Positions 22,130-60,863 of a stretch of 64,000 nucleotides of DNA are shown here, piece by piece (positions within the stretch are counted from its first letter, which is position 1; each line of letters opens with the position of its first letter). The position numbers and the translations under genes were made by a program. The notes below the pieces were generated by a model, which searched no databases, was not told the DNA's origin, and saw nothing but the letters and a program-made list of their open reading frames with translations. Location of the stretch: positions 420 through 64,419 of the forward strand of contig CAZMYW010000006.1 of assembly GCA_964570625.1 (NCBI GenBank). The letters are read 5' to 3'. This stretch comes from an uncultured Nitrospirota bacterium. GTDB lineage: Bacteria > Nitrospirota > Nitrospiria > 2-01-FULL-66-17.

Positions 22130-22879
22130 ATGATGCTACCAACACCCGTGCCCCGCTCATCAGCCATACCAGCTCCCGCTGAAAAAGAACGCACCGTCCA
22201 GCGCATGTTCTCCGCCATCGCGCGCTGGTACGATCTCAACAACACGGTCTTGTCGCTCGGCCTCCACCACGCGTGGAAGCGTCAAGCCGTGGCGCTGACG
22301 CAGGCCAAGCCCGGCAACACCGTGCTGGATCTGTGCGCGGGCACGTGCGACCTGGCGATTTTGCTCGGGGATACGGTCCGGCCGAGCGGCCGCGTCACGG
22401 CGTGTGATCTGAACGCGGAGATGCTGGAGATCGGCCGGCGCAAAGTTGCCAAGCGCGGGTACGATGATCGCATCACCTGCGTGTTGGGCAACGCGGAGTC
22501 GCTGCAATTCGAGAGCAATACGTTCGACGCCTTGACCGTGGCCTTCGGCCTGCGCAACGTCACACACCTGGACCGGGCCCTCGCGGAAATGTATCGGGTG
22601 CTACGACCCGGCGGCCGCGCCGTGTGCCTAGAGTTCTCCCAGCCCACCAACGCGGGGTTTCGCAAGGCGTATGACTTCTACTCGTTCACGCTCCTGCCCA
22701 AGATCGGTACCTGGATCGCTCGCGACCGCACCGGTGTGTACCAGTATTTGCCGGACTCGATCCGGAACTTCCCGTCCCAGGAGCGTTTTGCCGCCATGTG
22801 GCGCGAGACCGGCTTTCACGGCGTGCGGTACGTGAACCGCTCCGGCGGCATCGTGGCTATGCACATCGGCGTGAAATGA
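22130..22879 (+). CDS. ubiE: Demethylmenaquinone/ubiquinone C-methyltransferase
   Basis: RTVQRMFSAIARWYDLNNTVLSLGLHHAWKR and the SAM-binding VLDLCAGTCDLA are present. Confidence 0.85.
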   Translation: MMLPTPVPRSSAIPAPAEKERTVQRMFSAIARWYDLNNTVLSLGLHHAWKRQAVALTQAKPGNTVLDLCAGTCDLAILLGDTVRPSGRVTACDLNAEMLEIGRRKVAKRGYDDRITCVLGNAESLQFESNTFDALTVAFGLRNVTHLDRALAEMYRVLRPGGRAVCLEFSQPTNAGFRKAYDFYSFTLLPKIGTWIARDRTGVYQYLPDSIRNFPSQERFAAMWRETGFHGVRYVNRSGGIVAMHIGVK

Positions 22880-24450
22880 GCGCGATGAAGTCCATCCTCT
22901 ACGTGTGGCTGCCGTGCAAAGAGATCTACCCCATCGGCCTGACGTACCTGGCGAACTTTATCCATGGGCACCACCCCGAGATCAGCCAGCAGATTCTGGA
23001 TCTGACGCCCATCCCGCGCGAGCGGCGCAAGCAGGTGCTGCGCGACGTGATCGCTCAGAACAAATCCGACCTGGTCTGCTTCTCCTGGCGCGACATCCAG
23101 GTGTTCGCTCCGCACGAAGGCGACGCGAGCCTGAAGTACGCATTCAACTTCTACCACTCGATCAACCCGTTCAAGAAAGCGTTCGCGTCGTACAAGGGCT
23201 TGGAATTTCTCTGGCGCTACTACCAGGGCATTCGCGAGTTCCTGGGCTATCCCTGGCTAGTGGCCGAGGAGTTCCCGGACACGCGCATGATGATCGGTGG
23301 CGGCGCGTTTTCGGTCTTTGCGGATCAATTGATCCACAAGCTGCCCGAAGGCACGATCGGCATCTTGGGCGAGGGCGAAGAAGCCGTACTCAAAGTCGTC
23401 GAAGGCAAACCACTCGACGACGAGCGCTACATGGTCAAAGAGCGTGGCGTCGTGCACTCGGGCAAGAAGGGGCATTACCTGCCGCTGACCGACTTCAATC
23501 TGGACGTGCCGTACCTTTCCAAGGTCTACCCCCAGCACACCGTACACCGTGGCAACTACATCGGCGTGCAGACCAAACGCGGCTGCCCCTACGATTGCCA
23601 GTTCTGCGAGTACCCCTACATCGAAGGCAAAGAAGTGCGGCACCGCCCGCCCGCCGCGGTGTTGCACGACATGAAGCAGCACTACGAGTTCTGGGGCACG
23701 CGCAAATTCTGGTTCACCGACGCGCAATTTATCACCGGCCGCGAAGCCTACCTGCAAGTCATGGAAATCCTGGAGCGCATCAAGGCCGAGAAATTCCAAA
23801 TCGAGTGGTCCGGTTACCTGCGCACCAGCCACATCACCGCTGAACTGGCCAAGTTGATGGTGGCCACCGGCGTGGGCGACCTGGAAGTCGCCATCACCTC
23901 GGGCTCGCAAGCCATCATCAACGAGCTGCACATGGGCTTCTCATTAGAGAAGCTCTACGAAGGCTGCCGGCACTTGAAGGATGCGGGCTTCAAAGGCAAA
24001 GTGATCCTCAATTACTCCCCCAACTCTCCGGGTGAAACCGAGCAGACCCTGCTGGAGAGCGTGGAGTCCTACAAAAAGATCGCCGCGATCCTGGGCGAAG
24101 ACCACGTCTTCCCCATGCTCTTCTTCCTGGGCGTCCAACCCCACACCGGCTTCGAAGACCGTCTGCTGACCGAAGGCTACCTGAGCCAAGGTTACAACCC
24201 CCTCTCCCTGAATCCCCTGACGATCAAGAAACTCCTCTACAACCCCGCGCCCTTCTCCAAACTGATTGCCAAGGCCTGCCTGAAGGCGTGGGAGGCCAAA
24301 GAGAAGGAACTGCGCCAGACGCATGAAGTCGCGCGCGATCTCACCGGGCACTATGCGGATACGAATCTGTTCGCCGGGGTGGTGAAGGATTCGGGCAGGC
24401 AGGTACTGATCAACATCGAGCGGGAACTGGTCGGACCGCCTGGTCGTTAG
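22876..24450 (+). CDS. B12-binding-domain radical SAM protein (class B-like), function unknown
   Basis: Radical SAM CxxxCxxC motif is present (RGCPYDCQFCEYP), with an N-terminal cobalamin-binding-like domain. The start ATG overlaps the ubiE stop (ATGA). Confidence 0.75.
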   Translation: MSAMKSILYVWLPCKEIYPIGLTYLANFIHGHHPEISQQILDLTPIPRERRKQVLRDVIAQNKSDLVCFSWRDIQVFAPHEGDASLKYAFNFYHSINPFKKAFASYKGLEFLWRYYQGIREFLGYPWLVAEEFPDTRMMIGGGAFSVFADQLIHKLPEGTIGILGEGEEAVLKVVEGKPLDDERYMVKERGVVHSGKKGHYLPLTDFNLDVPYLSKVYPQHTVHRGNYIGVQTKRGCPYDCQFCEYPYIEGKEVRHRPPAAVLHDMKQHYEFWGTRKFWFTDAQFITGREAYLQVMEILERIKAEKFQIEWSGYLRTSHITAELAKLMVATGVGDLEVAITSGSQAIINELHMGFSLEKLYEGCRHLKDAGFKGKVILNYSPNSPGETEQTLLESVESYKKIAAILGEDHVFPMLFFLGVQPHTGFEDRLLTEGYLSQGYNPLSLNPLTIKKLLYNPAPFSKLIAKACLKAWEAKEKELRQTHEVARDLTGHYADTNLFAGVVKDSGRQVLINIERELVGPPGR

Positions 24451-24524: not shown

Positions 24525-25847
24525 GTGTTGCAAATCAAACAATTTGTCCAGCGCGATCTCTGGACCACCGACCTTCGGTCGCTCTCCGTCGTGCCGCGCG
24601 TGGGCGTTCAGGCCATGCGCCTGGCCATCGCGGTGTCCCTGGAATTTCGCCATCGCTTGCTCGATGCCCGGGCCGCCGGCCTGGTCTACACCACCCTGCT
24701 GTCGCTGGTGCCGTTCCTCGCCGTGGTGTTTTCGGTGTTGAAGGGCTTCGGCGCGCACCACCAGATCGAACCCGTGTTGGCGCAGGTGCTGGAGCCGTTG
24801 GGCCCGAAGGGACAGGAAATCACCCAGCAGGTGATCGGGTTCGTGGACAACCTCAAAGTCGGGGTCCTCGGGGTGCTCGGGGTCGCGGGCCTCTTGTACA
24901 CCGCCTACTCGCTCATCGATAAGATCGAACAGTCGCTGAACGCGATCTGGCAGGTGCGCCGGGGACGATCCTGGACGCGCAAGTTCACCGACTATTTGAG
25001 CGTGCTGCTGGTCGGGCCGGTGCTGGTGGTCACGGCCCTGGGCCTGCTGGCGTCGGTCCAAAGCCAAACCCTGGTCCAACGCGTGATGGCATTCCAACCG
25101 CTGGGATCGTGGGTGGTTGCGCTGGCCCAGTTGGTCCCGTTTCTCCTGCTCGCCGTGGTCTTTGCGTTCATCTACAAGTTCGTACCCAACACCCGGGTCC
25201 ATTTTGCCTCGGCCCTGGTGGGCGGAATATCCGCCGCCGCGTTGTGGGGTCTGGCGGGCATGGCATTCGCGAAATTCGTCGCGGGATCGGGCCAATACGG
25301 CGCCATCTACTCCGGCTTCGCGATCGTGCTGTTGTTGCTGATCTGGCTCTACGCCGCGTGGCTGATCGTGCTGGTCGGCGCCCAGGTGGCGTTTTTCCAT
25401 CAACATCCGGCCGCGTATCAATCCACGTTGATGTGGCAACAACACACTTCTGCCCTGCGGGAACAGGTGGCCCTGAGAGTAGTGGCCGCGCTGACGCGAC
25501 GGTTTCTGGACGGCGCAGGCCCGGTTCGTGCGGCCGATCTGGCCAACGAACTCAACCTTCCGGCCTCCTTGGTGGAAGCGCAGGTGGACCAACTCGTGAC
25601 GCACGGCTTTCTCGGCCGCCTGAGCGAACCTGCCGGCGTGACCCTGATCAAACCACCCGACACCACGCCCATCAACGACGTGCTCGACGCGGTTCGGGAG
25701 GTCAAAGCCTCCGAAGTCATGATTCCGAACCACGCACACGACCCCATCACCGATGCGCTGCGCCGCCGCGATCAAGCCGCTGAACAAGCCCTCGCCGGGC
25801 TCACCCTGGAATCCTTGGTAACCGAACGTAATGATTCGGCACGATGA
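24525..25847 (+). CDS. YihY/BrkB-family inner-membrane protein with a ~130-aa C-terminal extension
   Basis: The family-typical N-terminus and six TM segments are present (AGLVYTTLLSLVPFLAVVFSVL...). Confidence 0.75.
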   Translation: MLQIKQFVQRDLWTTDLRSLSVVPRVGVQAMRLAIAVSLEFRHRLLDARAAGLVYTTLLSLVPFLAVVFSVLKGFGAHHQIEPVLAQVLEPLGPKGQEITQQVIGFVDNLKVGVLGVLGVAGLLYTAYSLIDKIEQSLNAIWQVRRGRSWTRKFTDYLSVLLVGPVLVVTALGLLASVQSQTLVQRVMAFQPLGSWVVALAQLVPFLLLAVVFAFIYKFVPNTRVHFASALVGGISAAALWGLAGMAFAKFVAGSGQYGAIYSGFAIVLLLLIWLYAAWLIVLVGAQVAFFHQHPAAYQSTLMWQQHTSALREQVALRVVAALTRRFLDGAGPVRAADLANELNLPASLVEAQVDQLVTHGFLGRLSEPAGVTLIKPPDTTPINDVLDAVREVKASEVMIPNHAHDPITDALRRRDQAAEQALAGLTLESLVTERNDSAR

Positions 25848-25894
25848 GGATCGTGCGCCGGATGAACAGAGGGCTGCGACTCACGCGCTCAGAG

Positions 25895-25923
25895 TAGGCT
25901 TTCCCGATAGAGGTTGTTATAAT
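25895..25923 (+). promoter_or_regulatory. Candidate sigma70-like promoter for brnTA
   Basis: A TATAAT hexamer at 25918-25923 sits 48 nt upstream of the brnT start. The -35 element is weak (TAGGCT with 17-bp spacing). Confidence 0.3.
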
Positions 25924-25938
25924 GCGCACCACGATTGA

Positions 25939-26497
<559 letters not shown>

Positions 26498-26571
26498 CAC
26501 TGCCGGTCAGCAAGCCCTGGCTGGCAGGAGATATCATGCCTAAAATGATGAGTCTGCGCGGGTAAATCTCG

Positions 26572-26997
26572 ATGCTACTTAAAATCAAGCGGCTGTCTCA
26601 GACAGCAACGATCCCGAACTACGCCCATCCCGGTGACGCAGGCATCGATCTCTATGCGGCAACATCCACTACCCTGGAACCAGGAGAAGCCAAATTGATC
26701 GCAACCGGGATTGCGGTCGAACTTCCGTCGGGCACAGAGGCGCAGGTCCGACCTCGGAGCGGCCTGGCCTTGAAACACACCGTCACCGTCCTCAACACTC
26801 CCGGCACGATCGACGAGGGCTACCGCGGCGAGATCGGCGTGGTACTCATCAACCACGGGAAAGCCCGATTCGACGTTCACCACGGCATGAAGATCGCGCA
26901 GTTGGTGGTGGCGCCCCGACTACGGGTCGAGATTTCCGAAGTCAGTCAATTGTCTGACGCAGAGCGCGGCAACGGGGGATTCGGATCAACGGGATGA
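26572..26997 (+). CDS. dut: dUTP diphosphatase
   Basis: dUTPase motifs are present ([34 protein letters not shown]). Confidence 0.9.
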
Positions 26998-27010
26998 TCC
27001 GCGACGACCG

Positions 27011-28045
27011 ATGAGTAAGATGAAGGTAGTCCAGGTCACCAAACCCAAGGGTCCCTTTGAACTCGTGGAACGCGAGATCCCCGAGCCCGGACCCGGACAC
27101 GTGCGGATCAAGGTCCAGGCGTGCGGCATCTGCCACAGCGACATGTACACCAAAGACGGCCTCTGGCCCGGTATTCAATTCCCGCGAATTCCGGGACACG
27201 AAGTCGCCGGGGTGATCGATGCGTTAGGCCAGAGCGTCAACGGATGGACCGTTGGCCAGCGCGTGGGCGTGGGTTGGCACGGCGGCCACTGCGGGTACTG
27301 CGATTCGTGCCGCCGCGGCGAATTCGTGACCTGCCAAATCGAAAACACCGTCACCGGCATCTCCCGCGACGGCGGCTACGCCGAATACATGATCGCCCAC
27401 GAAGGAACCCTGGCCAAAATCCCCGACGCCCTCACTCCTGAAGAAGCCGCGCCCTTGATGTGCGCCGGCGTTACCACCTACAACTCCCTGCGCAACAGCG
27501 GCGCGAGGGCCGGCGATACCGTGGCCGTGCTGGGCTTAGGCGGTCTCGGCCACCTGGGCGTGCAGTACGCGAACAACATGGGCATGAGAACCATTGCCCT
27601 GGCGCGGGGCAAAGATAAAGAACCCTTGGCCAAGAAACTCGGCGCGCATCATTATATAGACAGCCAGGCCACAGACCCCGCGGCAGAACTGATGAAGCTG
27701 GGCGGAGCCAGCATCATCCTGTCCACGGTCACGGACGCCAAAGCCGTGAACGCGGTCATGGGTGGATTGGGCCTGAACGGAAAACTCGTCATCGTAGGCG
27801 CCCCGCACGAACCCCTCTCCGTGTCCCCCGGTTTCCTCATCGGAGGACGCCGATCCATTGCGGGCTGGCCCTCCGGCTCGTCCATCGATTCGCAGGACAC
27901 GCTGGCGTTCAGCGCCTTGACTGGCGTGCGGTCAATGAACGAGGTCTTCCCTCTGGAGCGCGCATCAGAGGCCTACGATCACATGATGAGCGGCAAGGCA
28001 CGGTTTCGAGTCGTTCTGACAACCGGACCACAGGGTCGGTCGTGA
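27011..28045 (+). CDS. Zinc-dependent alcohol dehydrogenase (MDR family)
   Basis: GHEVAGVIDALG, the structural-zinc Cys cluster CGYCDSCRRGEFVTC, and the GLGGLGHLGVQYA Rossmann motif are present. Confidence 0.85.
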   Translation: MSKMKVVQVTKPKGPFELVEREIPEPGPGHVRIKVQACGICHSDMYTKDGLWPGIQFPRIPGHEVAGVIDALGQSVNGWTVGQRVGVGWHGGHCGYCDSCRRGEFVTCQIENTVTGISRDGGYAEYMIAHEGTLAKIPDALTPEEAAPLMCAGVTTYNSLRNSGARAGDTVAVLGLGGLGHLGVQYANNMGMRTIALARGKDKEPLAKKLGAHHYIDSQATDPAAELMKLGGASIILSTVTDAKAVNAVMGGLGLNGKLVIVGAPHEPLSVSPGFLIGGRRSIAGWPSGSSIDSQDTLAFSALTGVRSMNEVFPLERASEAYDHMMSGKARFRVVLTTGPQGRS

Positions 28046-28184
28046 AGCGGCACGAAATCAAGATTCAAATCCTGACCCTGCCGGTAAACCCAGTGGCTCG
28101 GCCTGTCGGCGACGAGAGCGCCTTCGGGACACGCTCCCCCGAGGGATCATCCCGAAAAAGCGGTTGACTCGAAGACTCCTCCCT

Positions 28185-28309
28185 TAACCCGGCTTATTCA
28201 TGAACCTTCTACTGTACCCGCGGATATTTCCTGCGCCTTGCGGCGCTAAGCATATTTCGCTGGCGTCTTCGCGGGTTCGTTACAAACGTTCATGAATAAG
28301 CCGGGTTAA
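28185..28309. repeat. Perfect 22-bp inverted repeat (TTAACCCGGCTTATTCATGAAC) with an 81-bp spacer, ending 5 nt before the start codon of the BcsZ-BcsA fusion gene
   Basis: The arms lie at 28185-28206 and 28288-28309 and were read directly from the sequence. Confidence 0.6.
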
Positions 28310-28314
28310 CCGAA

Positions 28315-31300
28315 ATGACAACTCGCTTGTTTTCGGTTCGAGGCCTCGTCCTCGTGGCCTTCTTGTCGATCACCTGTTCGTCCGGACAGGCGCAAACGCC
28401 CGATAGCCCCAGCGACGCGGCGATCCGGCAGGTGGATGAACTCTCCGCATTGTGGAGCTTCTACAAGCACACCTACATCGCGACCGGACGCGTGATCAGT
28501 TTGGACGAACAGGGCGTCACCACATCCGAAGGGCAAGGCTACGCCATGCTCCGCGCGGTGTGGTCGAACGATCGGATCACCTTTGCGGACGCCTGGAATT
28601 GGACGAAGCAGCATCTTCAGGTCCGGAGCGATCACCTCTTTGCCTGGAAGTGGAAAGGCAAAGTGCTCTCGCTCAATTCCGCCACTGACGCCGACACCGA
28701 CATTGCCCTGGCGCTGATTCTGGCCTCGCGGCGGTTTTCCGAGCCCGCCTATGAACAAGCGGCGCTGGACGTGCTGGATTCCATTTGGAACAAGGAAATT
28801 GCGAAGATCGGTCGTCAGTATTATGTGACCGCTGGAAACTGGGCGGTCCAGGAAGACTATCCCACGATTCATGTCGCGTACCTGGCCCCGTACGCGTATG
28901 AGATCTTCGCGAGCGTGGACGACCGATATCCGTGGAAACGGTTAGTTGACAGCTCTTATCAGATCCTCGAGTGGATCTATTCCGAGCAAAGGTTGCAGCT
29001 CCCACCGGAGATTCTGTTTCTCGATAAACAGACCGGCCGGTTCCTCTTGAAGCACCCCCGCACCGGAGCGTCGGCGTCCTTTGGTTACGACGCGTTTCCG
29101 ATCTTCTGGCGGGTCGCGCTGGATGCCCAGTGGTTCGGTCGGCCCCAGAGCGAGCTTCGTCGCACCATGCTCGCATTCTTTCAAGACGAGTGGCGAGCCC
29201 GCAAGGCATTCTCCGATCGGTACTCGATTGGTGGTCAGCCGCTGTCTCGGATCGAAGGGCTTCCCCTCTACGCCACGGTCCACGCACTCGCCCTCCAGGA
29301 GGACCAAGCCCTTGCCCGCCTCATCGGCAACGCGAAGCTGGACACGCTTCGTCAGAACGCGCTGGGCGGCCGCGCGACGCCCTATTACCTGCACAACTGG
29401 CTGTGGTTCGGGCGCGCCTTCGAACTCCAAGCGTTGCGGACGTACGATGAATTTCTGGGATTTCTGCGCCCGTTCGATTTCAAAGGATTCTCGGCTCACT
29501 TCCCGTGGGCGCTGTTCGCGGTGACGATCGCCCTCTTTTTCCTCGCCCGCGTTCATCCCCGTTTCAAGCTCGCCTTTCTGGTGTGCGGCTTCGCTCTCTG
29601 CGGGTACTACCTCGTCTGGCGCCTCTTCAACACGCTGAACTTCGTGGAAACCGCGGGACCGTTTATCAGCCTCTCGTTATGGGGGGCGGAATTGTATGCT
29701 TTTTCAACCGTGCTGCTGCTCCTCGTGCAGGTGGGGCTGGGCGGAAAGCAGAAGACGCATAATGCGCCGCCGCTGCCGGGATACTCGCCATCCGTCGACA
29801 TCCTGATTCCGATTTATCCCGAATCGTGCGAGATCCTCACGAAAACGCTGGTTGCGGCCCGCGCCATCGAGTACGCAAACAAGCGCGTCTACGTGCTGGA
29901 TGACGGCCACCGCCCCGAGGTGGCCCGCGTCGCGGGGCGATTCGGCGCCACATACATCAAAGGACCGCGAACGCACGCCAAAGCCGGCAATCTCAACCAT
30001 GCGTTGGACCAAACGCAGGGCGAGCTCGTGGCGGTGTTCGATACCGATCACATTCCCGTGACCACGTTCTTGAAAGAGACCGTGCCATTCTTTGCCGATC
30101 CCAAGATGGCGGTGGTACAGACCCCGCACCACTTTTACAACCCGGACATCTTCCAGCGGGCGTTCGGGGGCAGCGAGCAGATTCCGAACGAACAGGACAT
30201 GTTCAATCACGCGATTCAGAACGGGAGGGATGCCTGGAACGGGGCGTTCTTCGTCGGGAGCGGCGCCGTGTTCCGGCGCTCGGCCCTCGCCGACGTCAAC
30301 GGCTTCAATCTCATGAGCATGACGGAGGACATCCACACCAGCCAGCATCTGCACGCCGCAGGATGGCGCTCGGCGTTTCTCGATAAGGACCTGGCGGTCG
30401 GGCTCGCGGCCGAGAATCTGTCGTCGTATCTGGGGCAACGGAGACGCTGGATGCTCGGCTGCCTGCAGATCTTCTTCAAGGACAATCCCTTGATCCGCCG
30501 AGGCCTGACAACACGGCAACGGCTGGGTTATTTCGCGTCGCTCTACTATTTCTTCTTTCCGGTGACCCGGATGGTGTTCTGGATCACCCCTCTCTATTTT
30601 CTGCTGTTCCATTTCCATCCCATTCTCTCGGACGTCTCGGTCCTGGTCGCGTACTTGCTGCCCTTCATCATCATCCTGCCGCTGATCGCGAGCACGCTCT
30701 TGCCAGGCTGGCCGCGACTGTTCTGGGCCTCGGTGTATGAAGCCACGGTCAGCTTTCAGCTCTTTCGGTCCATGTTCGATCTCTTCCTGCCCAAACGACT
30801 GGGCTTCAAGGTCACCCCGAAGGGATTGCGGTCCCACACGCGGGCGTTCGACTCCACCTCCGCGACCCTGCCCCTCATCGCGACCGGGATCACGCTCGTG
30901 GCGATCGCCAAAGGCCTGTGGGAGTTCTTCTACTTCGGCATCGAAAAGGACGCCTACTTTTTCAACCTGAGCTGGGCCTCGCTCAACCTGTTGTTCCTAC
31001 TCGTCGGCCTCTTGGTCGCCTGGGAACGACCGCAGCAACGAAGCGCGGACCGGATCAAGAAGTCGGTGCCGTTCGAGCTGGAGCGCGCCGGTGTGTCGCT
31101 GACGGGAACCACCCACGACCTCAGCTTGTCCGGGCTCTCGTTCATGACCGCGTTAAACGAGCCCATCCCGCTGTTCGGGGAGATCACCCTCCGCGACCGC
31201 GACCCGATCACGTGCCGGTATCAGGTCGTGTACCATGAACGCGTCTCGCGCCGAGCGTCCCGGTGCGGGGTCGCGTTTCTGGATGTGTCTCACGATGACC

Positions 31301-31755
31301 GATGCAAGCTGATCGTCGATCTATTTGCCGATTCGGGAACCTGGAATGGGGCTCATGCAACCCGAGTGCGCAGCAATTTACTGATGGCCTTCCATCTGTT
31401 CCGAGGCATCGTGCGATGCCTGCGACCCTTGCAACGCCGCACCCGAACCTGCCCGCGGCGCAAGACCTTGCGCCGCATCTCGGTGCGGGTCGGGAGTGAC
31501 CAGCGGCACGTGCTCTTGAGAGACTGGTCGTCACGCGGGATCGGAATCCTGCACATCGGCAAGGAATGGCCTTCGACCACGGAGAGCGGGCTGTCGGCTG
31601 ACCGCTTCCACGACACACCGTTCCAAGAGGTCTATCAAAAACAGCTGCTGCCCCATGTGTGGCGCGTCGGGCTGCGCGTCGCCACTCGCCCCGTCGGTGA
31701 GGCGATCCCCGCTCCCGTGCAAGGGCGTGAGATGGCCTTGCACCAGGACCGTTAG
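28315..31755 (+). CDS. Multidomain exopolysaccharide synthase: GH8 BcsZ-like endoglucanase, TM region, processive GT2 (BcsA-like, QRRRW) and two C-terminal PilZ domains
   Basis: There is a signal peptide. GH8 motifs are present (TSEGQGYAMLRAV, DADTDIALALILA). GT2 motifs are present (VLDDGHRPE, VFDTDHIP, LGQRRRWMLG). PilZ #1 has RSADR...DLSLSG and PilZ #2 has RRKTLRR...DWSSRG. Confidence 0.8.
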   Translation: MTTRLFSVRGLVLVAFLSITCSSGQAQTPDSPSDAAIRQVDELSALWSFYKHTYIATGRVISLDEQGVTTSEGQGYAMLRAVWSNDRITFADAWNWTKQHLQVRSDHLFAWKWKGKVLSLNSATDADTDIALALILASRRFSEPAYEQAALDVLDSIWNKEIAKIGRQYYVTAGNWAVQEDYPTIHVAYLAPYAYEIFASVDDRYPWKRLVDSSYQILEWIYSEQRLQLPPEILFLDKQTGRFLLKHPRTGASASFGYDAFPIFWRVALDAQWFGRPQSELRRTMLAFFQDEWRARKAFSDRYSIGGQPLSRIEGLPLYATVHALALQEDQALARLIGNAKLDTLRQNALGGRATPYYLHNWLWFGRAFELQALRTYDEFLGFLRPFDFKGFSAHFPWALFAVTIALFFLARVHPRFKLAFLVCGFALCGYYLVWRLFNTLNFVETAGPFISLSLWGAELYAFSTVLLLLVQVGLGGKQKTHNAPPLPGYSPSVDILIPIYPESCEILTKTLVAARAIEYANKRVYVLDDGHRPEVARVAGRFGATYIKGPRTHAKAGNLNHALDQTQGELVAVFDTDHIPVTTFLKETVPFFADPKMAVVQTPHHFYNPDIFQRAFGGSEQIPNEQDMFNHAIQNGRDAWNGAFFVGSGAVFRRSALADVNGFNLMSMTEDIHTSQHLHAAGWRSAFLDKDLAVGLAAENLSSYLGQRRRWMLGCLQIFFKDNPLIRRGLTTRQRLGYFASLYYFFFPVTRMVFWITPLYFLLFHFHPILSDVSVLVAYLLPFIIILPLIASTLLPGWPRLFWASVYEATVSFQLFRSMFDLFLPKRLGFKVTPKGLRSHTRAFDSTSATLPLIATGITLVAIAKGLWEFFYFGIEKDAYFFNLSWASLNLLFLLVGLLVAWERPQQRSADRIKKSVPFELERAGVSLTGTTHDLSLSGLSFMTALNEPIPLFGEITLRDRDPITCRYQVVYHERVSRRASRCGVAFLDVSHDDRCKLIVDLFADSGTWNGAHATRVRSNLLMAFHLFRGIVRCLRPLQRRTRTCPRRKTLRRISVRVGSDQRHVLLRDWSSRGIGILHIGKEWPSTTESGLSADRFHDTPFQEVYQKQLLPHVWRVGLRVATRPVGEAIPAPVQGREMALHQDR

Positions 31756-31772
31756 ATCCCAGAGGGCTCTTC

Positions 31773-33350
31773 TTGGATTGGAGGAATACGCTTTTTGCGC
31801 TGTTGATGGTTCTCGCCATGCTCCTCAGTGCCGCCACTGCGTCCGCGGCAGGGTTCAGTGAATCCTGGTACATGTACCGGGGAAACGCCAACATCGAGAT
31901 CGGCAACTATAAGGCGGCCATCGAAGCCTTTGAAAAGGTCCTGGAGCTAAACCCGGACAATCGGGAAGCCATGCGAAGCCTTGGCCTGTCCTACGAGCGA
32001 CAAGGCTTGAAGGATAAATCTATCGAGCTGTTCGATCGTTATCTCCAGAAGTACGATGACGACCCGGAGATTGCCTTCAAACAAGCCGAAGCCCTGGAGT
32101 GGTCACGGTACGCGTACCGCGAAAAAGACGCCCTGAAATATTACCGGATGGGGCTGAAGCGACGAGATGACCCCAAACGGCGTCTCAAATACGCCTCACA
32201 TCTGGCCAAAACCCGGGAAACCAGCCAGGAAGCGGTGGTTCAGTACGAGCGGGTCATTGCGGTGCAGCCCCGCAATGCGGAGGCGCACCGCGGCCTTGCG
32301 AAAGCCCACGCCTGGCTCGGCGACCGCGACCGCGCCCTCTATCACGCGAACCTGGCGGACCGCTACGCGATGACGGAGACCGGCGATCTGACCGCGCTGC
32401 GCCGCGATATGACGAAGGGGCGCGAACCGACCCTTGAAGGCATCGTCGGATTCCTCGCTCAGCCCCAAGACCCCTTCGAGTTATATGCAGTCCGGCTGGG
32501 CTCGCGCGTCAAAGGCGACCTGACCCCGTTCACCACCACCACGCTCGAAGCCGGTCTCGAGTACTTTGGGGATTCATCCGAAAAGTCGACCGGCGGATAT
32601 CTTGCGTTCGGAACCCAGGCCCGCTTCAATCCGTCCAATCGAATCAATGGCATGTTGGAGTATCACGGCGCCGCGCTGGCCAATCCTCTGGCCTACACCC
32701 TTGAGTACACGTATGCCGCGGCGTCGTTCTCGTTTCGCCCGGGCGTCAAACGCGCGCTCAAATACGATTCCCTCCCCGCGCTAGTGGGGAGTCGGGTCTC
32801 CGGCCAACTCATCGGCGCCGCGCGCTCAACCTTGTTCTACACCGACCTGGCCGTTTCCAAAGGCAGCCTCCAGGTCAACGCCACGCCGTTTGCCGGCTGG
32901 GTCGACGGCGAGTCGCTCGCCAACAACGGGCAGGTGGGGCTGGATGCGAAAGTGGCCATGCCGTTCTGGAGCCGTGACACCTGGAACGTGTCCGGCGAAT
33001 ACCTCTTGTACCTGACCCACTACGCCAACGACCAATCAGAGTTCGATACCGGCGCGGCCCCCCTGGCCGGCTATTTCAGCCCCCGCCTGTTCGTCAATCA
33101 GACCCCGCGCCTGGTGGCCACGTACGTCTCACCCACCAAGAACGAGCTATCCGTGGCAGCAGGCCCGTCGATTCAGTATATCGACGAAGCCAGGAACGAC
33201 CCCGCGCTTCGAATCGGCGCGGATGCGCACGTCTCGTACACCGCCCGCGTGCCGGACCGCTTGCTCCTCAAATTCATGGCAGATCTAACCCAGATCACCG
33301 GCATCCAGACGCGCGTCCAGTTGCAGGGGCTCCTGGTGTACACGTTCTGA
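31773..33350 (+). CDS. TPR-repeat outer-membrane beta-barrel protein (BcsC/PgaA-like polysaccharide export porin, compact)
   Basis: A signal peptide and N-terminal TPR repeats are present (AIEAFEKVLELNPDNREAMRSLGLSYERQG). The C-terminal beta-strand-rich region ends in ...LLVYTF. Confidence 0.65.
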   Translation: MDWRNTLFALLMVLAMLLSAATASAAGFSESWYMYRGNANIEIGNYKAAIEAFEKVLELNPDNREAMRSLGLSYERQGLKDKSIELFDRYLQKYDDDPEIAFKQAEALEWSRYAYREKDALKYYRMGLKRRDDPKRRLKYASHLAKTRETSQEAVVQYERVIAVQPRNAEAHRGLAKAHAWLGDRDRALYHANLADRYAMTETGDLTALRRDMTKGREPTLEGIVGFLAQPQDPFELYAVRLGSRVKGDLTPFTTTTLEAGLEYFGDSSEKSTGGYLAFGTQARFNPSNRINGMLEYHGAALANPLAYTLEYTYAAASFSFRPGVKRALKYDSLPALVGSRVSGQLIGAARSTLFYTDLAVSKGSLQVNATPFAGWVDGESLANNGQVGLDAKVAMPFWSRDTWNVSGEYLLYLTHYANDQSEFDTGAAPLAGYFSPRLFVNQTPRLVATYVSPTKNELSVAAGPSIQYIDEARNDPALRIGADAHVSYTARVPDRLLLKFMADLTQITGIQTRVQLQGLLVYTF

Positions 33351-33489
33351 TCACCGACTCGTGATCCGGGAGGCGTCAAGGCCAGAATCTTGACATCCCG
33401 ATCAGGATGCGCGCAGAGTAACGCCCATGGCTCGACCGCTCGGAATCGACTATCCGGGCGCCGTCGACCACGTGAGCGGTGTCCTGATG

Positions 33490-33693
33490 GGCGGACGCCG
33501 ATCCATCACGGGCTGGCCGTCCGGATCGTCTATCGATTCGCAGGACACGCTGGCGTTCAGCGCCCTGACGGGCGTGCGGTCGATGAACGAGGTTTTCCCT
33601 CTGGAGCGCGCATCAGAGGCCTATGATCGGATGATGAGTGGCAAGGCACGGTTCCGAGTCGTGCTCACAACCGGGCATCACAGCGGGTCCTGA
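33490..33693 (+). pseudogene. Orphan 3'-terminal fragment of a zinc alcohol dehydrogenase gene (diverged duplicate of 27840-28045)
   Basis: About 90% nucleotide and about 93% amino-acid identity to the last ~65 codons of the ADH at 27011-28045, with no upstream ADH sequence. Confidence 0.7.
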
Positions 33694-33840
33694 GACGAAA
33701 AGACCTTATCCCAACGCAAGGCCTGGTCCTCAGTCCCCCACTGAATCGAGGGAGCTACCCTCAGAAGCCTAGTTTGGAATCCACCGATAGAGCCCTCTAG
33801 GCTGAGTAGAGTCGGGCTCGTATCTTGGAGCGGGCATCCA

Positions 33841-36800
33841 GTGCCTTCTCCCAACCTTCAAACAAAAGTACTTCGACGCAAGACCACGCCAGAGGAGTAC
33901 CGCGTGTATCGGGCGGGCCTCGAATGGGACTTAACCGATCCCATAGTTATCGAGACGCGCAAGGACCTGAAATCTGAATATCTTTGGCGTGACCGGATGG
34001 AGCCCTATCATCATCAGGTCACAAATCTCATCACCTTCTGCCGCCGCCTGCCGGTCACGCTGCTCGCCGACGACGTCGGTCTCGGCAAAACGATTAGCGC
34101 CGGGCTGATCATCAGCGAGCTAATCTCCCGCTCCCGTCTTTCCAGGATTCTTATTGTCTGCCCCAAGCTGCTCGGCCCGCAGTGGCAGGAGGAACTGCTC
34201 ACGAAATTCAACATTCCTTCTGAGATTGCGATCGGGAGAGACCTGATCAAAGCTGATCCCGAGGGAACCGGTGCCGTCATCACAACCTATCATTCGGCGC
34301 GCCTGCATCTCGATCCAATCCCGAAGGATCGTTTCCAGATGCTGGTGTTGGATGAGGCGCACAAGCTGCGAAACCTCTATGGCGTCGAAAAACCCCCGCA
34401 GGTGGCCAAGCGTTTCCGGAAGGCCCTGGAAGAGCGCCGGTTTCGCTTCGTCCTTATGCTGACCGCGACGCCGATACAGAACCGCCTGTGGGATCTCTAT
34501 TCGTTGGTCGATCTGTTGACCGTTGCGCGTGGGCACCAAAACCCCTTTGGCAGCGAGGACATGTTTGCTCGGAAGTTCATCGCCGACAATCGGGAGCAGA
34601 CCCGCCAGTTGAAGCCGGAAGCGCGCGACGAGTTCCGATCGATTGTCTACGGCTACATGTCGAGGGTCCGGCGCGGAGACGCCAGGCTCTATTTCCCGGA
34701 CCGAGTCGTGCAAATGCACAAGGTCGACCCCACAGCGGCAGAGTTGCAGCTGATCGACGCTATCGCCAAGCCGATCCAGAAACTGAACCGGCTCGCGCAA
34801 ATTTCGATCCTGCAGGCTCTCACTAGTAGCCCAGATGCGTTGATGGCACAGTTGAACAACATGGCAAAGAACGGCACTGTTCCTGAGGAGCTTGCCGCGA
34901 CGGTCCGCGCCATCGTCACCGGAATGCCCACCAGCGCCAAGCTTCATGGGCTCGGCGGGCTGATCGACAGACTAAAACGGGAGAATCCGGAACGCTGGCG
35001 GCTCGTCGTATTCACAGGACGGCTAGAGACCCAGACCACCATCCAAGCCTTCCTGGAAAAGTACGGCCTCAAGGTCGGGATAATCAACGGTATGTCCGGC
35101 CCGCGTAATCAGGAGACCATCACGCGTTTCAGAAAAAACCCGCCTGATTCCCACGTTATCGTGTCTACCGAAGCTGGATCCGAGGGCATCAACCTTCAAG
35201 TCGCCAACGTACTGGTCAACTACGACCTGCCCTGGAACCCAATGATCGTCGAACAGCGTATCGGACGCGTACAACGCTTGGCGTCCGAGCATGCGAGCGT
35301 CGGTATTTTCAACATCATGCTGCGTGGTACCTTCGAGGAGTACATCGTTGGACGCTTGATGGAAAAACTTCAGATGGCGTCCCACGCGATCGGCGATATT
35401 GAATCGCTGCTCGAAGCATCCGGAATCAGTGGAGAGGATGAGGACGGGGCAACGAGCTTTGACGAGAAGATCCGCCAGCTCGTCATAGCGGCGCTCGCAG
35501 GCAAGGACGTGGAGGCAGCAACACGCCAGGAGGAGCAAAGTATTGCCAATGCGAAGAGCGCTCTGGAGCGCGAGGAAGAGAGCATCAACACCCTACTCGG
35601 CGGAATGGATGGAGCCGAGTATGTCGGACCTCGCGCGCCGGCCCTGCCCGGCGTCGTGCGATCTATGGAGCCGCGCGATTTCACTCTGGCAGCCTTAAGG
35701 AGTCTTGGCGCGCGTATCACGCCGCAACCGCCGGATCTGTATCTGGCGGAAGGAAACGGCGGACGTGAACACATCCGTTTTGAGGAAAACGCTGGCGCAG
35801 GCGTAAAAAGCACCCTCTACGCTCCCGGCACTGCCGCCTTCATCCGGCTAGTCGGTCGGATCATTGCAACCGGCGTTTATGAAGTAGAAGACCTCGACCA
35901 AAATCCAGCCAAAGAGGCCGAGGAACTCGCCCGCCGGTGGGTCCTGGCCTTCAGCGGAACGCCCAAGGCAGTAGAGGTCGAAGAGGTGCGCCGTTGTTTC
36001 GAAGGGACGGCTCTCGTCCGAGTGCGCGCCACGGTTGCGCATGACAGCTATGAGCGCCTCGTGGAAGTTTCCTGTTCATCGGCAGAGTACTATGCTGATA
36101 CAGGCCGATCAGGGCTTGGCCCCTTGTCTCAGACAATTGAGAATCCCAACGCCCTTGGGATCAACATCGACAGATTGGCTGACGCTGCAAAATTGGATGG
36201 GGCAATCTCCGAATTCTCCCGCTTCTACTTGGAAAGGCGAGCACAGGAAATGCAGGCCGCAGCCGGGGATGAGCGGAAAAAAAAGAGGCTAGAGGATGAG
36301 TTCACCCCCCGCCTTGAAATGACGCTGGTTGCGCTCGAAGGAAGGCTGCACCGCCAGCTAAGAGTTAAAGCGCAATACACGCTTGATGCTGAAGCCGATT
36401 ACCATAGTTTGCTGACCGTTATACCGCATACGGGAAGATGGGTCGATGCTCCAGAAATGGGGCTCTGCGCTCGATCGGGCAAGACTGTTCCTAAGACGTG
36501 CCTCAAGCAATGTCAGATCGCGGGGGCGGTGGTGCTGCAGCATCTCCTCGCCCGGTCCGAGATGAGTTCAAGGCTTGCGCTGCCGGAATTTACGGTCCTG
36601 TGCAGCCTAAGTGGCAAGCGCGTTCTCAAGGACGAAGCCGAGTTGTCAACGGTGAGTAGACAGCTGGTCGCAAGCTCACTCCTTAAGACTTCGGTTCTAA
36701 GCGGGCAGCGGGCAGAACCCAGTCATTTTGGTCAGTGCGAATTTACTAAAGCCGAGGTTCTCAATACCGAGCTTGCCATTAGCGAAGTGTCGGGTAAGCG

Positions 36801-37539
36801 CTATCGCGTCGATGAGCAAGTGCGATCGGTTGTTTCTGGAAAGACGGGCCACAGGTCGGAGTTTCTGATCTGCCATGAGACCCGACAGCCCTTAATTGTG
36901 TCGGAAGCCGAGCAATGCAGGGTCACCGGTATGTACGTTCGGCCGGGAATCTTGGAGCCATGTGCGATCACGCAGACGCGGGTACTGCCCTCGGAGCTTG
37001 AGCGTTGCGCTGCTACCGGCAAGCGCGCGCTAAAGAAGCTGTTGGTGACGAGCAGCTTGTCGGAAGCGCGCATTCTGGAGGATGTTGCTGTGCGGTCGGC
37101 TACTGGAAAATTTTGTGCGCCGGTTGAAACCAAGACTTGTCTTTGGAGTGGCCGGAAGTGCCATCCAGATGATCTTCGCGCGTGCGCGCTGACTGGCCTT
37201 CCTATCCACTTTGAATTTGCCACGACAAATGGTAAACCCCGTCTCCAGCCGCTTGTCGACCTGCTCAACGGCATCAAGAGAACCGCGGACGAGCCCAAGT
37301 TGTGGGACACCGTAGCGACCGAGATCACAGCGAAACTCGGGAAGGGGTGGTGCCGTGTGGAGGCTGCGGTTCTTTCACCAGATAGGCGGCATCTTGCAGT
37401 CTGCTCCGAGGTCCGTACGTTGCTCGGCTTCCGGGTGAATCAAGCTGGTTTGGTGTACGCCATCGGAGACCATTCCATCCTTGGTCGAACGGCTCAAGGG
37501 CGTCGTACTTCCGAGGGATGGTCAGAGGTCAAAAGCTAG
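33841..37539 (+). CDS. SNF2-family helicase (RapA/HepA-like ATPase core) with a ~600-aa C-terminal domain containing ~10 tandem Cys-rich 16-17-aa repeats
   Basis: SNF2 motifs I (LLADDVGLGKT), II (LVLDEAHKLRN) and III (LMLTATPIQN) are present, with a helicase C domain (VSTEAGSEGINLQ, QRIGRVQR). The C-terminal repeats follow the pattern [CS]xx[ST]GK[RT]. An alternative start is ATG 33997 (MEPYHHQ). Confidence 0.8.
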   Translation: MPSPNLQTKVLRRKTTPEEYRVYRAGLEWDLTDPIVIETRKDLKSEYLWRDRMEPYHHQVTNLITFCRRLPVTLLADDVGLGKTISAGLIISELISRSRLSRILIVCPKLLGPQWQEELLTKFNIPSEIAIGRDLIKADPEGTGAVITTYHSARLHLDPIPKDRFQMLVLDEAHKLRNLYGVEKPPQVAKRFRKALEERRFRFVLMLTATPIQNRLWDLYSLVDLLTVARGHQNPFGSEDMFARKFIADNREQTRQLKPEARDEFRSIVYGYMSRVRRGDARLYFPDRVVQMHKVDPTAAELQLIDAIAKPIQKLNRLAQISILQALTSSPDALMAQLNNMAKNGTVPEELAATVRAIVTGMPTSAKLHGLGGLIDRLKRENPERWRLVVFTGRLETQTTIQAFLEKYGLKVGIINGMSGPRNQETITRFRKNPPDSHVIVSTEAGSEGINLQVANVLVNYDLPWNPMIVEQRIGRVQRLASEHASVGIFNIMLRGTFEEYIVGRLMEKLQMASHAIGDIESLLEASGISGEDEDGATSFDEKIRQLVIAALAGKDVEAATRQEEQSIANAKSALEREEESINTLLGGMDGAEYVGPRAPALPGVVRSMEPRDFTLAALRSLGARITPQPPDLYLAEGNGGREHIRFEENAGAGVKSTLYAPGTAAFIRLVGRIIATGVYEVEDLDQNPAKEAEELARRWVLAFSGTPKAVEVEEVRRCFEGTALVRVRATVAHDSYERLVEVSCSSAEYYADTGRSGLGPLSQTIENPNALGINIDRLADAAKLDGAISEFSRFYLERRAQEMQAAAGDERKKKRLEDEFTPRLEMTLVALEGRLHRQLRVKAQYTLDAEADYHSLLTVIPHTGRWVDAPEMGLCARSGKTVPKTCLKQCQIAGAVVLQHLLARSEMSSRLALPEFTVLCSLSGKRVLKDEAELSTVSRQLVASSLLKTSVLSGQRAEPSHFGQCEFTKAEVLNTELAISEVSGKRYRVDEQVRSVVSGKTGHRSEFLICHETRQPLIVSEAEQCRVTGMYVRPGILEPCAITQTRVLPSELERCAATGKRALKKLLVTSSLSEARILEDVAVRSATGKFCAPVETKTCLWSGRKCHPDDLRACALTGLPIHFEFATTNGKPRLQPLVDLLNGIKRTADEPKLWDTVATEITAKLGKGWCRVEAAVLSPDRRHLAVCSEVRTLLGFRVNQAGLVYAIGDHSILGRTAQGRRTSEGWSEVKS

Positions 37540-37675
37540 TGGCTCCTCACGCGCCACGGTAAAGCGCCATAGGCGCGAGTACGATCCGGTAGCAAGGGTA
37601 AAGCCGGTCGCGGCGTGGATCGACCGCGATGAAGGTCAGAGAGCCAATTCCACTATTCCGTTGGGGGAGGCCCAC

Positions 37676-39355
37676 GTGGATAAGGAAACTGCTTTCGCTA
37701 GAGCGACTTCGGGGGGTTCGCAAGTTCCTGAAGATTGGATGCCAGCAACGGGAACACGTGCTTTTGTATTTGAGGATCCTATTCTCATTTGGCTGGAATT
37801 TCACGGCGAAGCGAATGGATTTCAGAAAGACGCCTCATCGCCCTACGATTTCATGACGTTTATCTTCGAAAAGGGAAGGCAGTTCGAAAATAAGTGGATT
37901 TCTGAATTTGCTCCAGAGGCAATACGCGTTTGCTCGCACGCGTATGAGGTTCGCCGAGTCGAAAGATTCCACCAAACACTCGACCTTATTGAGCGCGGCA
38001 CTCCGGTTATCGCAGGCCCCGCTCTTTGGTGGGCTCCAGAAAAAATATTGGGAGTCCCGGACCTTTTGGTGCGGAGTGACTGGCTTAGTAAGCGCTTACC
38101 GAATACCCGTGTTCAATCAGAATCGGCTGAGCATTACGTGGTGTTGGACATGAAATTCACGACGAAACTCGACTCGACAGAGAAAAAGTTGTCGTTTTCG
38201 AACTACGAGGCACAGGTGAGAATCTACTCTTACATAGTCGGCCAGCTTACGGGTGTAATGGCCCCCCACTCCTTTCTAGTTTGCCGCGACCGGATCGACA
38301 ATCCGCTCGATGTCCCGACCCATTCAGCCATCGGTCCTCTTGATGAGGATCTCCGTAGATTCCGCGAATCTTACCTCGACATTAAGCTCAAGGGTGGCGC
38401 GTACCGACCGGGAATAGACTCTCAGATTGCGGTGAACCTATCAAACGACCAAGATGATCCTTGGCATACGGCAAAGATCGAGATTGCAAGAAACCGAGTA
38501 CCCGGTGGTGACCCATGCCTCGTTTATGAAATCGGGGCGACACAGCGGCAGGCACTTGCAGACAGAGGATTCGGAAATCTGAAGGCCCTCATGGAAATTG
38601 TTCCGGAACAAATCCCTCTGGAATCTTGCAAGGGCCTCGGGGCTGCCAAATGTCCGCGAATCCGGGCCGTGCTGCGAGCAAACCAGACAGGAACGGTTAC
38701 CCGTAACAAACCAACGCGTCTGCCGGTTGAAAAGTCAGTCGAGCTTTACGTCGACTTCGAGACATTCAACAACCTCAACGTCAACTTCGACAGAGAATGG
38801 CCCACGCTCCAAGGCTGTGAAATGATCTTCATGATTGGTGTCGCATGGGTGGAGAACAATAGCTTGCGATATCAAGCGGTCATCGCCGATACCGAGAGCC
38901 AAGCAGGCGAACGTCGGCTTTTGGAAGATTTCGAGAAGCTCATTCGCTCCCGAACAAATGGTTCGACTGTCGATCCGTCATCCACGGCTCTGGTCCACTG
39001 GACAAGCGCCGAAGTCTGGCAGCTTAAACGGGCCTGTGACCGACAGGGCTTCGAGGCGAGTCATCCGCTCAGAAATCTCCCGTGGTTCGATCTTCAAAAG
39101 GAAGTCTTCCTCGCAGAACCAATCGGTGTCCCGGGGGCATGGGGTTACGGAATTAAAGAGGTTGTGCTTTCGCTAGGACTACTCCAATGGCCTGGGGATC
39201 TGGATGACGGTCTCCGCGCCAGTGTCGCCGGATGGAAAGGTTATCAATCAAGCAAACCCCTTGAGTCTTCCGATATGCAGATCGTGGTGCAGTACAACGA
39301 GGTGGATTGCAACGCACTACACGAAGTCGTGAAGTGGCTTCGCCGATCGGCCTGA
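37676..39355 (+). CDS. RecB-family PD-(D/E)xK nuclease fused to a C-terminal RNase-H-like (DnaQ-type) domain (TM0106-like)
   Basis: The nuclease motifs are GVPDLLVRSD and VVLDMKFTTK (D...D-x-K). The C-terminal domain begins YVDFETFNN (DxE). The start was set at GTG 37676, which follows a strong SD (GGGGGAGG) and avoids overlap with the SNF2 gene. Confidence 0.65.
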   Translation: MDKETAFARATSGGSQVPEDWMPATGTRAFVFEDPILIWLEFHGEANGFQKDASSPYDFMTFIFEKGRQFENKWISEFAPEAIRVCSHAYEVRRVERFHQTLDLIERGTPVIAGPALWWAPEKILGVPDLLVRSDWLSKRLPNTRVQSESAEHYVVLDMKFTTKLDSTEKKLSFSNYEAQVRIYSYIVGQLTGVMAPHSFLVCRDRIDNPLDVPTHSAIGPLDEDLRRFRESYLDIKLKGGAYRPGIDSQIAVNLSNDQDDPWHTAKIEIARNRVPGGDPCLVYEIGATQRQALADRGFGNLKALMEIVPEQIPLESCKGLGAAKCPRIRAVLRANQTGTVTRNKPTRLPVEKSVELYVDFETFNNLNVNFDREWPTLQGCEMIFMIGVAWVENNSLRYQAVIADTESQAGERRLLEDFEKLIRSRTNGSTVDPSSTALVHWTSAEVWQLKRACDRQGFEASHPLRNLPWFDLQKEVFLAEPIGVPGAWGYGIKEVVLSLGLLQWPGDLDDGLRASVAGWKGYQSSKPLESSDMQIVVQYNEVDCNALHEVVKWLRRSA

Positions 39356-39434: not shown

Positions 39435-39467
39435 CCTCGGGGGTCAGGCTTGACTCTGTTGACTAGG
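39435..39467 (+). repeat. Direct repeat A (CCTCGGGGGTCAGGCTTGACTCTGTTGACTAGG), preceded by a 16-bp tandem duplication; contains two TTGACT -35-like hexamers
   Basis: Second copy lies at 40285-40314. The two copies flank the gene 39524-40270. Confidence 0.6.
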
Positions 39468-39523
39468 CGGGGCTTGTAGACGTTGCGGCATTAGTGGCGT
39501 TGCTTACGACTCCGGGGATAGCG

Positions 39524-40270: not shown

Positions 40271-40284
40271 CAGGGGATGCACAA

Positions 40285-40314
40285 CCTCGGGGTCAGACTT
40301 GACTCGTTGACTTT
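40285..40314 (+). repeat. Direct repeat B (CCTCGGGGTCAGACTTGACTCGTTGACTTT); possible promoter for tag
   Basis: 28 of 30 matches to the repeat at 39435-39467. Confidence 0.6.
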
Positions 40315-60860: not shown

Positions 60861-60863
60861 GGC

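Follow-up and report, generated by a model that had tools for sequence, protein, structure and literature searches.

How can a gene stay intact and yet leave a second copy of its 3' end on the far side of a block of other genes? This question is raised by a 64-kb stretch of an uncultured Nitrospirota genome (contig CAZMYW010000006.1; hereafter, the window), in which the last codons of a full-length zinc-dependent alcohol dehydrogenase (ADH) gene recur downstream of a two-gene exopolysaccharide (EPS) cassette, bcsZA and bcsC. Beyond the repeated end lie an SNF2 helicase gene and its neighbors and, further on, the 3-methyladenine DNA glycosylase gene tag. An initial annotation, made from the sequence alone, had recognized the duplication and likened it to integrative elements that target the 3' end of a gene and carry a replacement end. 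Our analysis bears out the duplication and points, with somewhat better than even confidence, to a different origin: the duplicated ADH 3' end would be a recombination scar, formed by an illegitimate joint together with a homologous crossover in the ADH 3' end and reshuffled later. The relatives used for comparison are labeled L001, L002, and L081 to L092, and the closest ADH loci recovered by sequence search are from Nitrospirota metagenome-assembled genomes (MAGs). Domains were assigned by Pfam scans, and coordinates are collected in Table 1.

A repeat search of the window found one such direct repeat, 217 nt long with a spacing of 5648 nt. Its two copies, A at the end of the ADH gene and B downstream of the cassette, agree in register at 189 of 217 positions (87.1%), and identity falls to 24 to 27% outside the repeat. 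A 31-nt core of the repeat matches the window at two places only and was never recovered in 100 shuffles. The copies had originally been placed at 27840-28045 and 33490-33693; the place stands, whereas the left edge lies 11 to 13 nt further left. The first estimate of about 90% nucleotide identity was slightly generous (87.4% over 27840-28045, or 89.9% without the last 18 nt). The longest identical runs, of 33 and 29 nt, fall within universally conserved ADH sequence. No homology was found between the flanks 3' of copies A and B, their in-register identity being at chance level; only the flank of copy A and that of the corresponding fragment in L082 resemble each other, over the first ~20 to 40 nt. 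On the left, sliding identity against L001 and L002 shows no clear shift at an ADH breakpoint at 27829.

Both copies keep the ADH reading frame through to a shared terminal TGA. The encoded peptides are 93.9% identical over 66 residues, and across 71 codons the copies differ by 19 synonymous and 9 nonsynonymous changes, which corresponds to a ratio of nonsynonymous to synonymous divergence (dN/dS) of 0.13 by the Nei-Gojobori method; the estimates as a whole span 0.05 to 0.13. In the central 52 codons, the bias is stronger, with 12.5 synonymous and 1.5 nonsynonymous differences (P = 3.5e-6 under neutrality). Four of the nonsynonymous changes are in the last five codons, which are also variable among functional ADHs. 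Since the differences are mainly synonymous, copies A and B represent two alleles that each evolved as working genes. These values agree with the initial annotation, which had reported mostly synonymous differences and peptides about 93% identical, and had proposed that the second copy came from a diverged functional ADH rather than from the decay of a recent duplication.

The DNA between the copies (28046-33476) measures 5431 nt, in line with the ~5.4-kb insert first described, and the SNF2 gene begins 147 nt past copy B. This insert had been said to hold exactly the two EPS genes. Both are indeed present, together with a 269-nt spacer containing a hairpin and an overlooked remnant of a transposase gene at the right end. 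The remnant consists of 98 nt, equivalent to the first 17 codons of a Y1_Tnp gene (ATG at 33427) together with the sequence 5' of them. It matches positions 4425-4497 of L087, where the gene is full length (283 aa), with 82% identity over 73 nt (blastn, E = 4e-14), and 13 of the 17 residues are identical between the remnant and the L087 protein (MARPLGIDYPGAVDHVS versus MARPLRIEYPGAVYHVT). The HUH and catalytic-tyrosine region is not included in the remnant. As a sigma-70 scan called no promoter in it, its 5' part is described here only as an upstream region.

At the left edge of copy B, the 17 Y1 codons are joined in frame to ADH codons 273-344, giving an open reading frame (ORF) of 88 aa (33427-33693). 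Because its upstream 98 nt match the start of the L087 Y1_Tnp gene, this ORF is a chimera of two unrelated genes. With the L087 Y1 gene and ADH copy A taken as parental types, the microhomology at the joint amounts to at most ~3 bases, about CGG. Judged by these sequences, the Y1::ADH joint is the signature of illegitimate recombination and not an element terminus or an attachment (att) site. The chimeric N terminus is covered by no other protein among 5.8 billion searched; the many matches of 95 aa to the ORF were dismissed as junction homologs, since they are ADH fragments from contig edges, with a conserved internal methionine as their start. With regard to mobilization of the IS200/IS605 type, the cassette has no intact Y1 gene, and its sole long hairpin, located in the spacer, is without a partner at the other end.

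The same Y1::ADH junction is found in L082 (2749-2965), an independent JGI contig from Ga0483972 that is 91 to 92% identical in bcs and in which two 1-nt insertions break the ORF. The junction is therefore not an assembly artifact. L082 runs from bcsC through the Y1 remnant, the junction, and the ADH fragment to tag, which follows after ~60 nt. This order indicates that ADH-tag is the underlying arrangement and that tag is the native downstream neighbor, as had been supposed. It also follows that the SNF2/RNase_H_2/DUF748 block, which is not between fragment and tag in L082, is a separate difference outside the bracketed unit. The left side of the cassette is represented in L081, from Ga0137352, which carries ADH, a long spacer, and bcsZA before the contig ends within bcsC. 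In L002 and L086, bcsZA-bcsC begins 27 nt after ADH, a deletion there having taken the hairpin along with the end of ADH and the adjoining flank, and neither relative has an ADH fragment downstream of bcs. L002 keeps Y1-related sequence only to the equivalent of 33424, that is, the upstream region, and the Y1 gene that follows bcsC in L086 is intact but a different one. In L083 and L084, homology stops ~16 nt past the bcsC stop codon and unrelated genes follow.

Divergence at four-fold-degenerate sites (bootstrap intervals in square brackets) separates the cassette from its surroundings, and Nei-Gojobori synonymous divergence (dS) gives the same picture. Between the window and L082, the ADH fragment differs by 0.31 [0.17-0.47] and tag by 0.40 [0.30-0.49], compared to 0.13 [0.08-0.17] for bcsZA and 0.16 [0.12-0.20] for bcsC. 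Against L081, ADH stands at 0.36 [0.29-0.43], with bcsZA at 0.14 and bcsC at 0.12. The noncoding spacer, shared by the window and L081, and the Y1 remnant are alignable at 73 to 81% (81% for the remnant against L082), a cassette-level rather than a flank-level distance. In the comparisons with L086 (flanks, 0.23-0.28; bcs, 0.19-0.21) and L002 (flanks, 0.30-0.38; bcs, 0.25-0.26), the two classes are similar. The low divergence of bcs and spacer relative to the flanks implies that the DNA between the ADH copies was exchanged among the lineages of the window, L081, and L082 after their backbones had split, and the shifts in divergence are located at the two ADH copies. The bracketed DNA thus forms a unit with its own history (0.12-0.16 in bcs versus 0.31-0.40 in the flanks against L081 and L082), as its earlier description had implied.

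The ADH fragments on the far side of the shared junction do not follow the cassette. Copy B and the L082 fragment differ in their central 52 codons by 14 synonymous changes and 1 nonsynonymous change (P = 5e-8), and their dS of about 0.5 is near that of tag (0.62), unlike that of bcs (0.20-0.26) or of the Y1 remnant. If both fragments were dead DNA from one event, some dozen or more nonsynonymous differences would be expected, even at the neutral distance of the Y1 remnant, and it is very unlikely that a shared illegitimate junction arose twice. As the differences are almost wholly synonymous, each fragment must recently have been part of a working ADH. The pseudogenes are therefore younger than the junction beside them, and recombination with functional ADH alleles came afterwards. 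Early decay is visible in L082, where the two insertions are at the 5' edge of the fragment and R-to-C and G-to-S replacements affect conserved residues; the window fragment shows essentially none. Gene conversion from copy A was considered as a cause of the functional look of the fragment and rejected, because 14 central sites separate A from B, almost every one of them by a synonymous change.

The recombination scar that we favor could have formed when incoming DNA from one Nitrospirota lineage, made up of an ADH 3' end, the spacer, bcsZA, bcsC, and the start of a Y1 gene, joined the ADH-tag locus of another. One crossover would have been homologous, within the ADH 3' end, and the other illegitimate, linking Y1 codon 17 to ADH codon 273. 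Homology-facilitated illegitimate recombination (HFIR) of a linear fragment is one conceivable route; a Campbell-type single crossover of a fragment circularized by end joining is another. Either way, the two joints together would produce the observed structure in one step. The expected product is an intact ADH (copy A) 5' of the cassette and a displaced, once functional ADH 3' end (copy B) 3' of it, beside tag. The locus has the features that either route calls for, namely, one joint of unrelated sequences with at most a few bases of microhomology and a second boundary that is homologous and derives from different alleles. Later, the cassette and its fixed junction would have been swapped among lineages by homologous recombination with breakpoints in or near both ADH copies. 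Such swaps would pair genomes that carry the cassette with others whose ADH-tag locus is functional, with a crossover near the junction inside the homologous ADH 3' sequence, and would leave in each genome a fragment that is a recently disabled piece of its own, or a naive donor's, working ADH. The repeat, the chimeric junction and its recurrence in a second genome, the lack of a recombinase, the contrast in divergence, and the synonymous bias are shown directly; which way the DNA moved, whether the intermediate was linear or circular, and how many events took place are inferred.

Several observations weigh against this account. The bcs genes are somewhat less diverged than the flanks in the comparisons with L086 and L002 too (synonymous ratio of about 0.7 to 0.8), and since this holds in every pair, part of the contrast may be gene specific. 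Copy A differs from the L081 ADH 3' end by a dS of 0.55, like the rest of ADH, which does not agree with a simple model that has copy A move along with the cassette every time. The phylogeny of the ADH 3' core (180 nt) is star-like, with pairwise differences of 7 to 16%, so that donor and recipient cannot be assigned. Among the relatives recovered, none has a full ADH directly followed by tag, and the empty site is deduced from the fragment-tag order of L082 only. No second contig covers both copy A and copy B. Finally, the same junction next to a "fresh" fragment in two backbones also fits a mechanism that crosses at one fixed point.

Repeated integration at a fixed point is what a site-specific integrative element (a genomic island or integrative and mobilizable element) would bring about, inserting at the ADH 3' end with a replacement end and with its integrase since decayed or acting in trans. 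Such an element would account for the topology of intact gene, cargo, and displaced 3' fragment, for the separate divergence history of the cassette, and for one junction beside independently fresh fragments; a cargo hotspot between ADH and tag, described below, is a setting that suits it. Nevertheless, Pfam scans of the 45 candidate ORFs of the window detected no integrase, recombinase, or transposase, in accordance with the initial annotation, and no recombinase was called in the related cassette copies L082 to L086. The window also contains no tRNA or tmRNA gene as a target. The supposed attR would lie in a truncated gene, at an in-frame fusion within codon 17 that is no defined terminus, and the repeats are 217 nt long at 87% identity, with no short identical core. 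Tandem islands would be expected to leave a third ADH copy, but neither tblastn with the full ADH nor a 31-mer search allowing 3 mismatches detected one in the window. In L002 and L086, ADH-bcs comes without an attR-like fragment, a gene order that had been named at the outset as the one that would speak against an integrative element, and the interval accepts cargo in general. We consider an element of this kind unlikely: the topology matches the original idea, but the machinery most likely does not. The fixed junction has a further conceivable use, in that the bcs cassette together with it could be a mobile unit that cycles among Nitrospirota, excising via the ADH 3' repeats and re-entering other ADH alleles with a crossover always at the junction or beside it, either free of a recombinase or driven in trans by Y1 (HUH) genes. 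This idea is distinctly doubtful; were it true, the cassette would be an integrase-less cargo system that targets a gene 3' end, and Y1 genes do end different ADH-tag cargos on the right.

Copy B could also be what is left of a second full-length ADH paralog, or of an ADH-bcs tandem duplication, after a deletion from Y1 codon 18 to ADH codon 272. A long-lived functional paralog would explain the synonymous-biased divergence of A and B, and a single deletion would create the in-frame junction. However, no second ADH is found in the relatives, and in L086, L087, and L002 no ADH separates Y1, or what remains of it, from tag or whatever other genes come next. An inherited deletion predicts neutral drift, in contrast to the 14-to-1 excess of synonymous changes between the window and L082 fragments in the central codons, and a recent intragenomic duplication is excluded by the 13% divergence. 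A paralogous origin thus appears improbable. As for a faulty assembly, the window is a metagenome-assembled contig and both copies occur together on no other contig, as would be seen if two strain variants, with the full ADH and the fragment on separate molecules, had been joined. Yet the junctions are independently confirmed, with ADH-spacer-bcsZA in L081 and bcsC-Y1 remnant-fragment-tag in L082. A repeat of 87% identity is not of the kind that collapses or misjoins, and composition and GC content at third codon positions (GC3) are continuous over the region, which makes such an artifact extremely improbable.

The recombination scar lies in an interval whose content differs widely among relatives. 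At least six different cargos occupy the ADH-to-tag interval in relatives, among them bcs and an SNF2 helicase with a nuclease-like protein. ADH is followed in L087 by a gene for a 634-aa protein, the Y1 gene, and tag, with AbiEi (AbiEi_2) beyond tag, further downstream; in L089, L090, and L092 by an AAA_15 ATPase (PADLOC HEC-01A/mad3-like) and a mad4-like protein; in L091 by a HisKA_3 kinase; and in L001 by small ORFs and DinB. ADH occurs without bcs in L001 and in L087 to L092. Because the cargo after ADH orthologs of 84 to 89% identity in Nitrospirota MAGs varies so much, the interval up to tag is a hypervariable hotspot. In the window, the SNF2 gene (GC3, 0.66) and the gene for the RNase_H_2 protein (0.56) stand out from neighbors at 0.77 to 0.80, with DUF748 at 0.80. 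SNF2 matches the BrxHI/DrmD/ZorD-type SNF2 models of PADLOC, which returned no matches for the RNase_H_2 protein, DUF748, or a 380-aa protein. SNF2 and the RNase_H_2 protein are possibly an acquired defense-like pair. A search for repeats bounding the SNF2 block gave nothing convincing. A 17-nt motif, GGGGTCAG(G/A)CTTGACTC, occurs at 39440-39456 and 40289-40305, just 5' of DUF748 and of tag, and a similar one, GGGGTCAGACTTG, is located upstream of the L086 Y1 gene. The DUF748-tag order of the window is inverted relative to L087, in which tag precedes DUF748.

The bracketed genes are predicted to form a BcsB-less, cellulose-synthase-like module composed of a GH8-GT2-PilZ fusion and a short TPR/BCSC_C protein. 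The fusion gene, bcsZA, has orthologs of 85 to 90% identity in L002, L081, L083, L085, and L086. In bcsC, the BCSC_C match is marginal, at 25.3 bits against a cutoff of 23.5, and Pfam detected no BcsB domain in the two-gene cassette. Homologs of the second gene at about 60 to 64% identity are widespread in Nitrospira and Nitrospiraceae assemblies. A metagenome scan with the BcsC-like protein recovered only one locus. In the spacer, a hairpin at 28184-28309 (+ strand) has a 25-bp stem and a 76-nt loop and ends 5 nt before the bcsZA ATG, with a predicted folding energy of -63 kcal/mol (z = -6.7). In L081, it is conserved, the loop being longer and one stem change compensatory; it is missing from L002 and L086. 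An Rfam search of 27900-34000 at E <= 1 gave no match, and the hairpin is therefore not a known riboswitch; it may be a structure with a regulatory role or else a small element that was inserted.

Table 1. Features of the ADH-tag region and its upstream neighbors, in window coordinates
Feature	Positions	Strand	Basis or detail
Radical SAM gene	22798-24450		
BrkB/Rrf2	24525-25847		
124-aa ORF	26123-26497		
dUTPase	26572-26997		
Zn-dependent alcohol dehydrogenase (ADH), full-length, intact, 344 aa	27011-28045	+	Pfam ADH_N 2e-30, ADH_zinc_N 3e-21
Repeat copy A, ADH codons 273-344 plus stop	27829-28045	+	189/217 nt shared with copy B
ADH-bcs spacer, 269 nt	28046-28314	+	Contains 25-bp-stem hairpin
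bcsZA, GH8 (BcsZ-like)-GT2 (BcsA-like)-PilZ fusion, 1146 aa	28315-31755	+	Pfam
bcsC, TPR + BCSC_C outer-membrane-type protein, 525 aa	31773-33350	+	Pfam TPR families; BCSC_C 1.1e-5
Y1 (IS200-like, PF01797) transposase-type gene remnant	33380-33477	+	blastn to L087
Repeat copy B, displaced ADH 3' fragment, codons 273-344 plus stop	33477-33693	+	In frame with Y1 remnant
SNF2 helicase, 1232 aa	33841-37539	+	Pfam; PADLOC
624-aa protein, C-terminal RNase_H_2 domain	37481-39355	+	Pfam
DUF748 protein	39494-40270	+	
3-methyladenine DNA glycosylase (tag), probable start	40379-40993	+	Pfam Adenine_glyco 7e-78

The start given for tag is that of its relatives. The mechanically called ORF opens at 40277, whereas the L082 and L087 orthologs open at the equivalent of 40379 (ATGACCAAACG), which, from this alignment, is probably the true start. 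On the other side of ADH, the 124-aa ORF and dUTPase separate it from BrkB in the window (25848-27010). The BrkB-ADH gap is 3 nt in L086, holds unrelated 165-aa and 66-aa ORFs in L088 and L089, and contains OsmC in L002, so that the upstream side of ADH is variable as well. A 142-aa OsmC adjoins ADH or BrkB in L001, L002, L086, L088, and L089. In the window, an OsmC pseudogene is found at 52882-53079 (+ strand), with an internal in-frame deletion that joins residues 2-29 to 108-143 of the 142-aa protein; its position 25 kb away from ADH points to large rearrangements in the region. Next to this pseudogene, a GAF-domain ORF (51707-52702, - strand) overlaps by 37 nt a 104-aa ORF (51429-51743) whose match to the GGDEF profile is confined to positions 66-160, and 51429-52702 (- strand) looks like a GAF-GGDEF gene split by a frameshift. 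A second polysaccharide-related cluster at 53874-62729 comprises a GH18 protein, a 1448-aa TPR and polysaccharide-deacetylase protein, and a 621-aa GT2/chitin-synthase-like protein. With a PAS-GGDEF-EAL protein at 1398-4289, functions related to cyclic di-GMP and EPS are abundant in the window.

Read as a recombination scar, the duplicated ADH end records the movement of an exopolysaccharide (biofilm-matrix) cassette among uncultured Nitrospirota with no visible mobility genes, at crossover points that are still readable. It also marks the ADH-tag interval as a cargo hotspot with defense-like genes in relatives. For the prediction of genomic islands, the locus calls for caution: a duplicated gene 3' end around cargo mimics a pair of att sites and can come from an illegitimate joint plus homologous recombination.

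Genomic islands, integrative and conjugative elements (ICEs), and phages integrate into the 3' ends of genes, such as tRNA and tmRNA genes, guaA, and rlmH/orfX, and restore the gene with an element-borne copy. The locus described here resembles these insertions in that the target gene is intact, the displaced 3' end forms a direct repeat beyond the cargo, and the element-side copy is under protein-level selection. In contrast to them, it has no integrase and a long repeat with 13% divergence, its far junction falls within a truncated transposase-type gene, and relatives carry the cargo without the repeat. Defense islands and other cargo hotspots between core genes offer a second parallel, as unrelated cargo follows ADH in relatives, but duplication of a core-gene end is not usually part of the description of such hotspots, and here the scar marks the crossover site of one exchange.

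Loci coding for Rhs, contact-dependent inhibition (CDI), and type VI secretion system (T6SS) effector proteins are similar in another respect: an incoming module, recombining via the upstream region or the conserved 5' portion, pushes the old 3' end downstream as an orphan fragment (PMC5361080). In those loci, the 3' ends encode polymorphic toxin domains with immunity genes, which provides a selective rationale, whereas the two ADH 3' ends are orthologous and encode a near-identical protein, and the fragment is without evident function.

The closest counterpart is HFIR, which was reportedly the subject of studies by de Vries and Wackernagel (2002) and Prudhomme et al. (2002). Classical HFIR usually results in deletion and not duplication. 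The Nitrospirota locus shares with HFIR and Campbell-type integration a homologous crossover combined with an illegitimate joint of little or no microhomology, with foreign DNA placed beside the anchor. When HFIR was assayed in Escherichia coli, 56 of the 60 recombinants had arisen by single crossover of recircularized, partly degraded molecules and duplicated 109 to 950 bp of the homologous locus (PMC3240628), a range that includes the 217-bp duplication seen here. For Rhs and T6SS loci, HFIR has likewise been proposed to explain how 3' ends are displaced and orphaned (PMC5361080). Unlike the kilobase-scale inserts of laboratory HFIR, the present case involves a natural 5.4-kb EPS cassette, alleles that are 87% identical, and later spread by recombination. 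The locus thus provides an instance from nature of a type of recombination scar that is already known.

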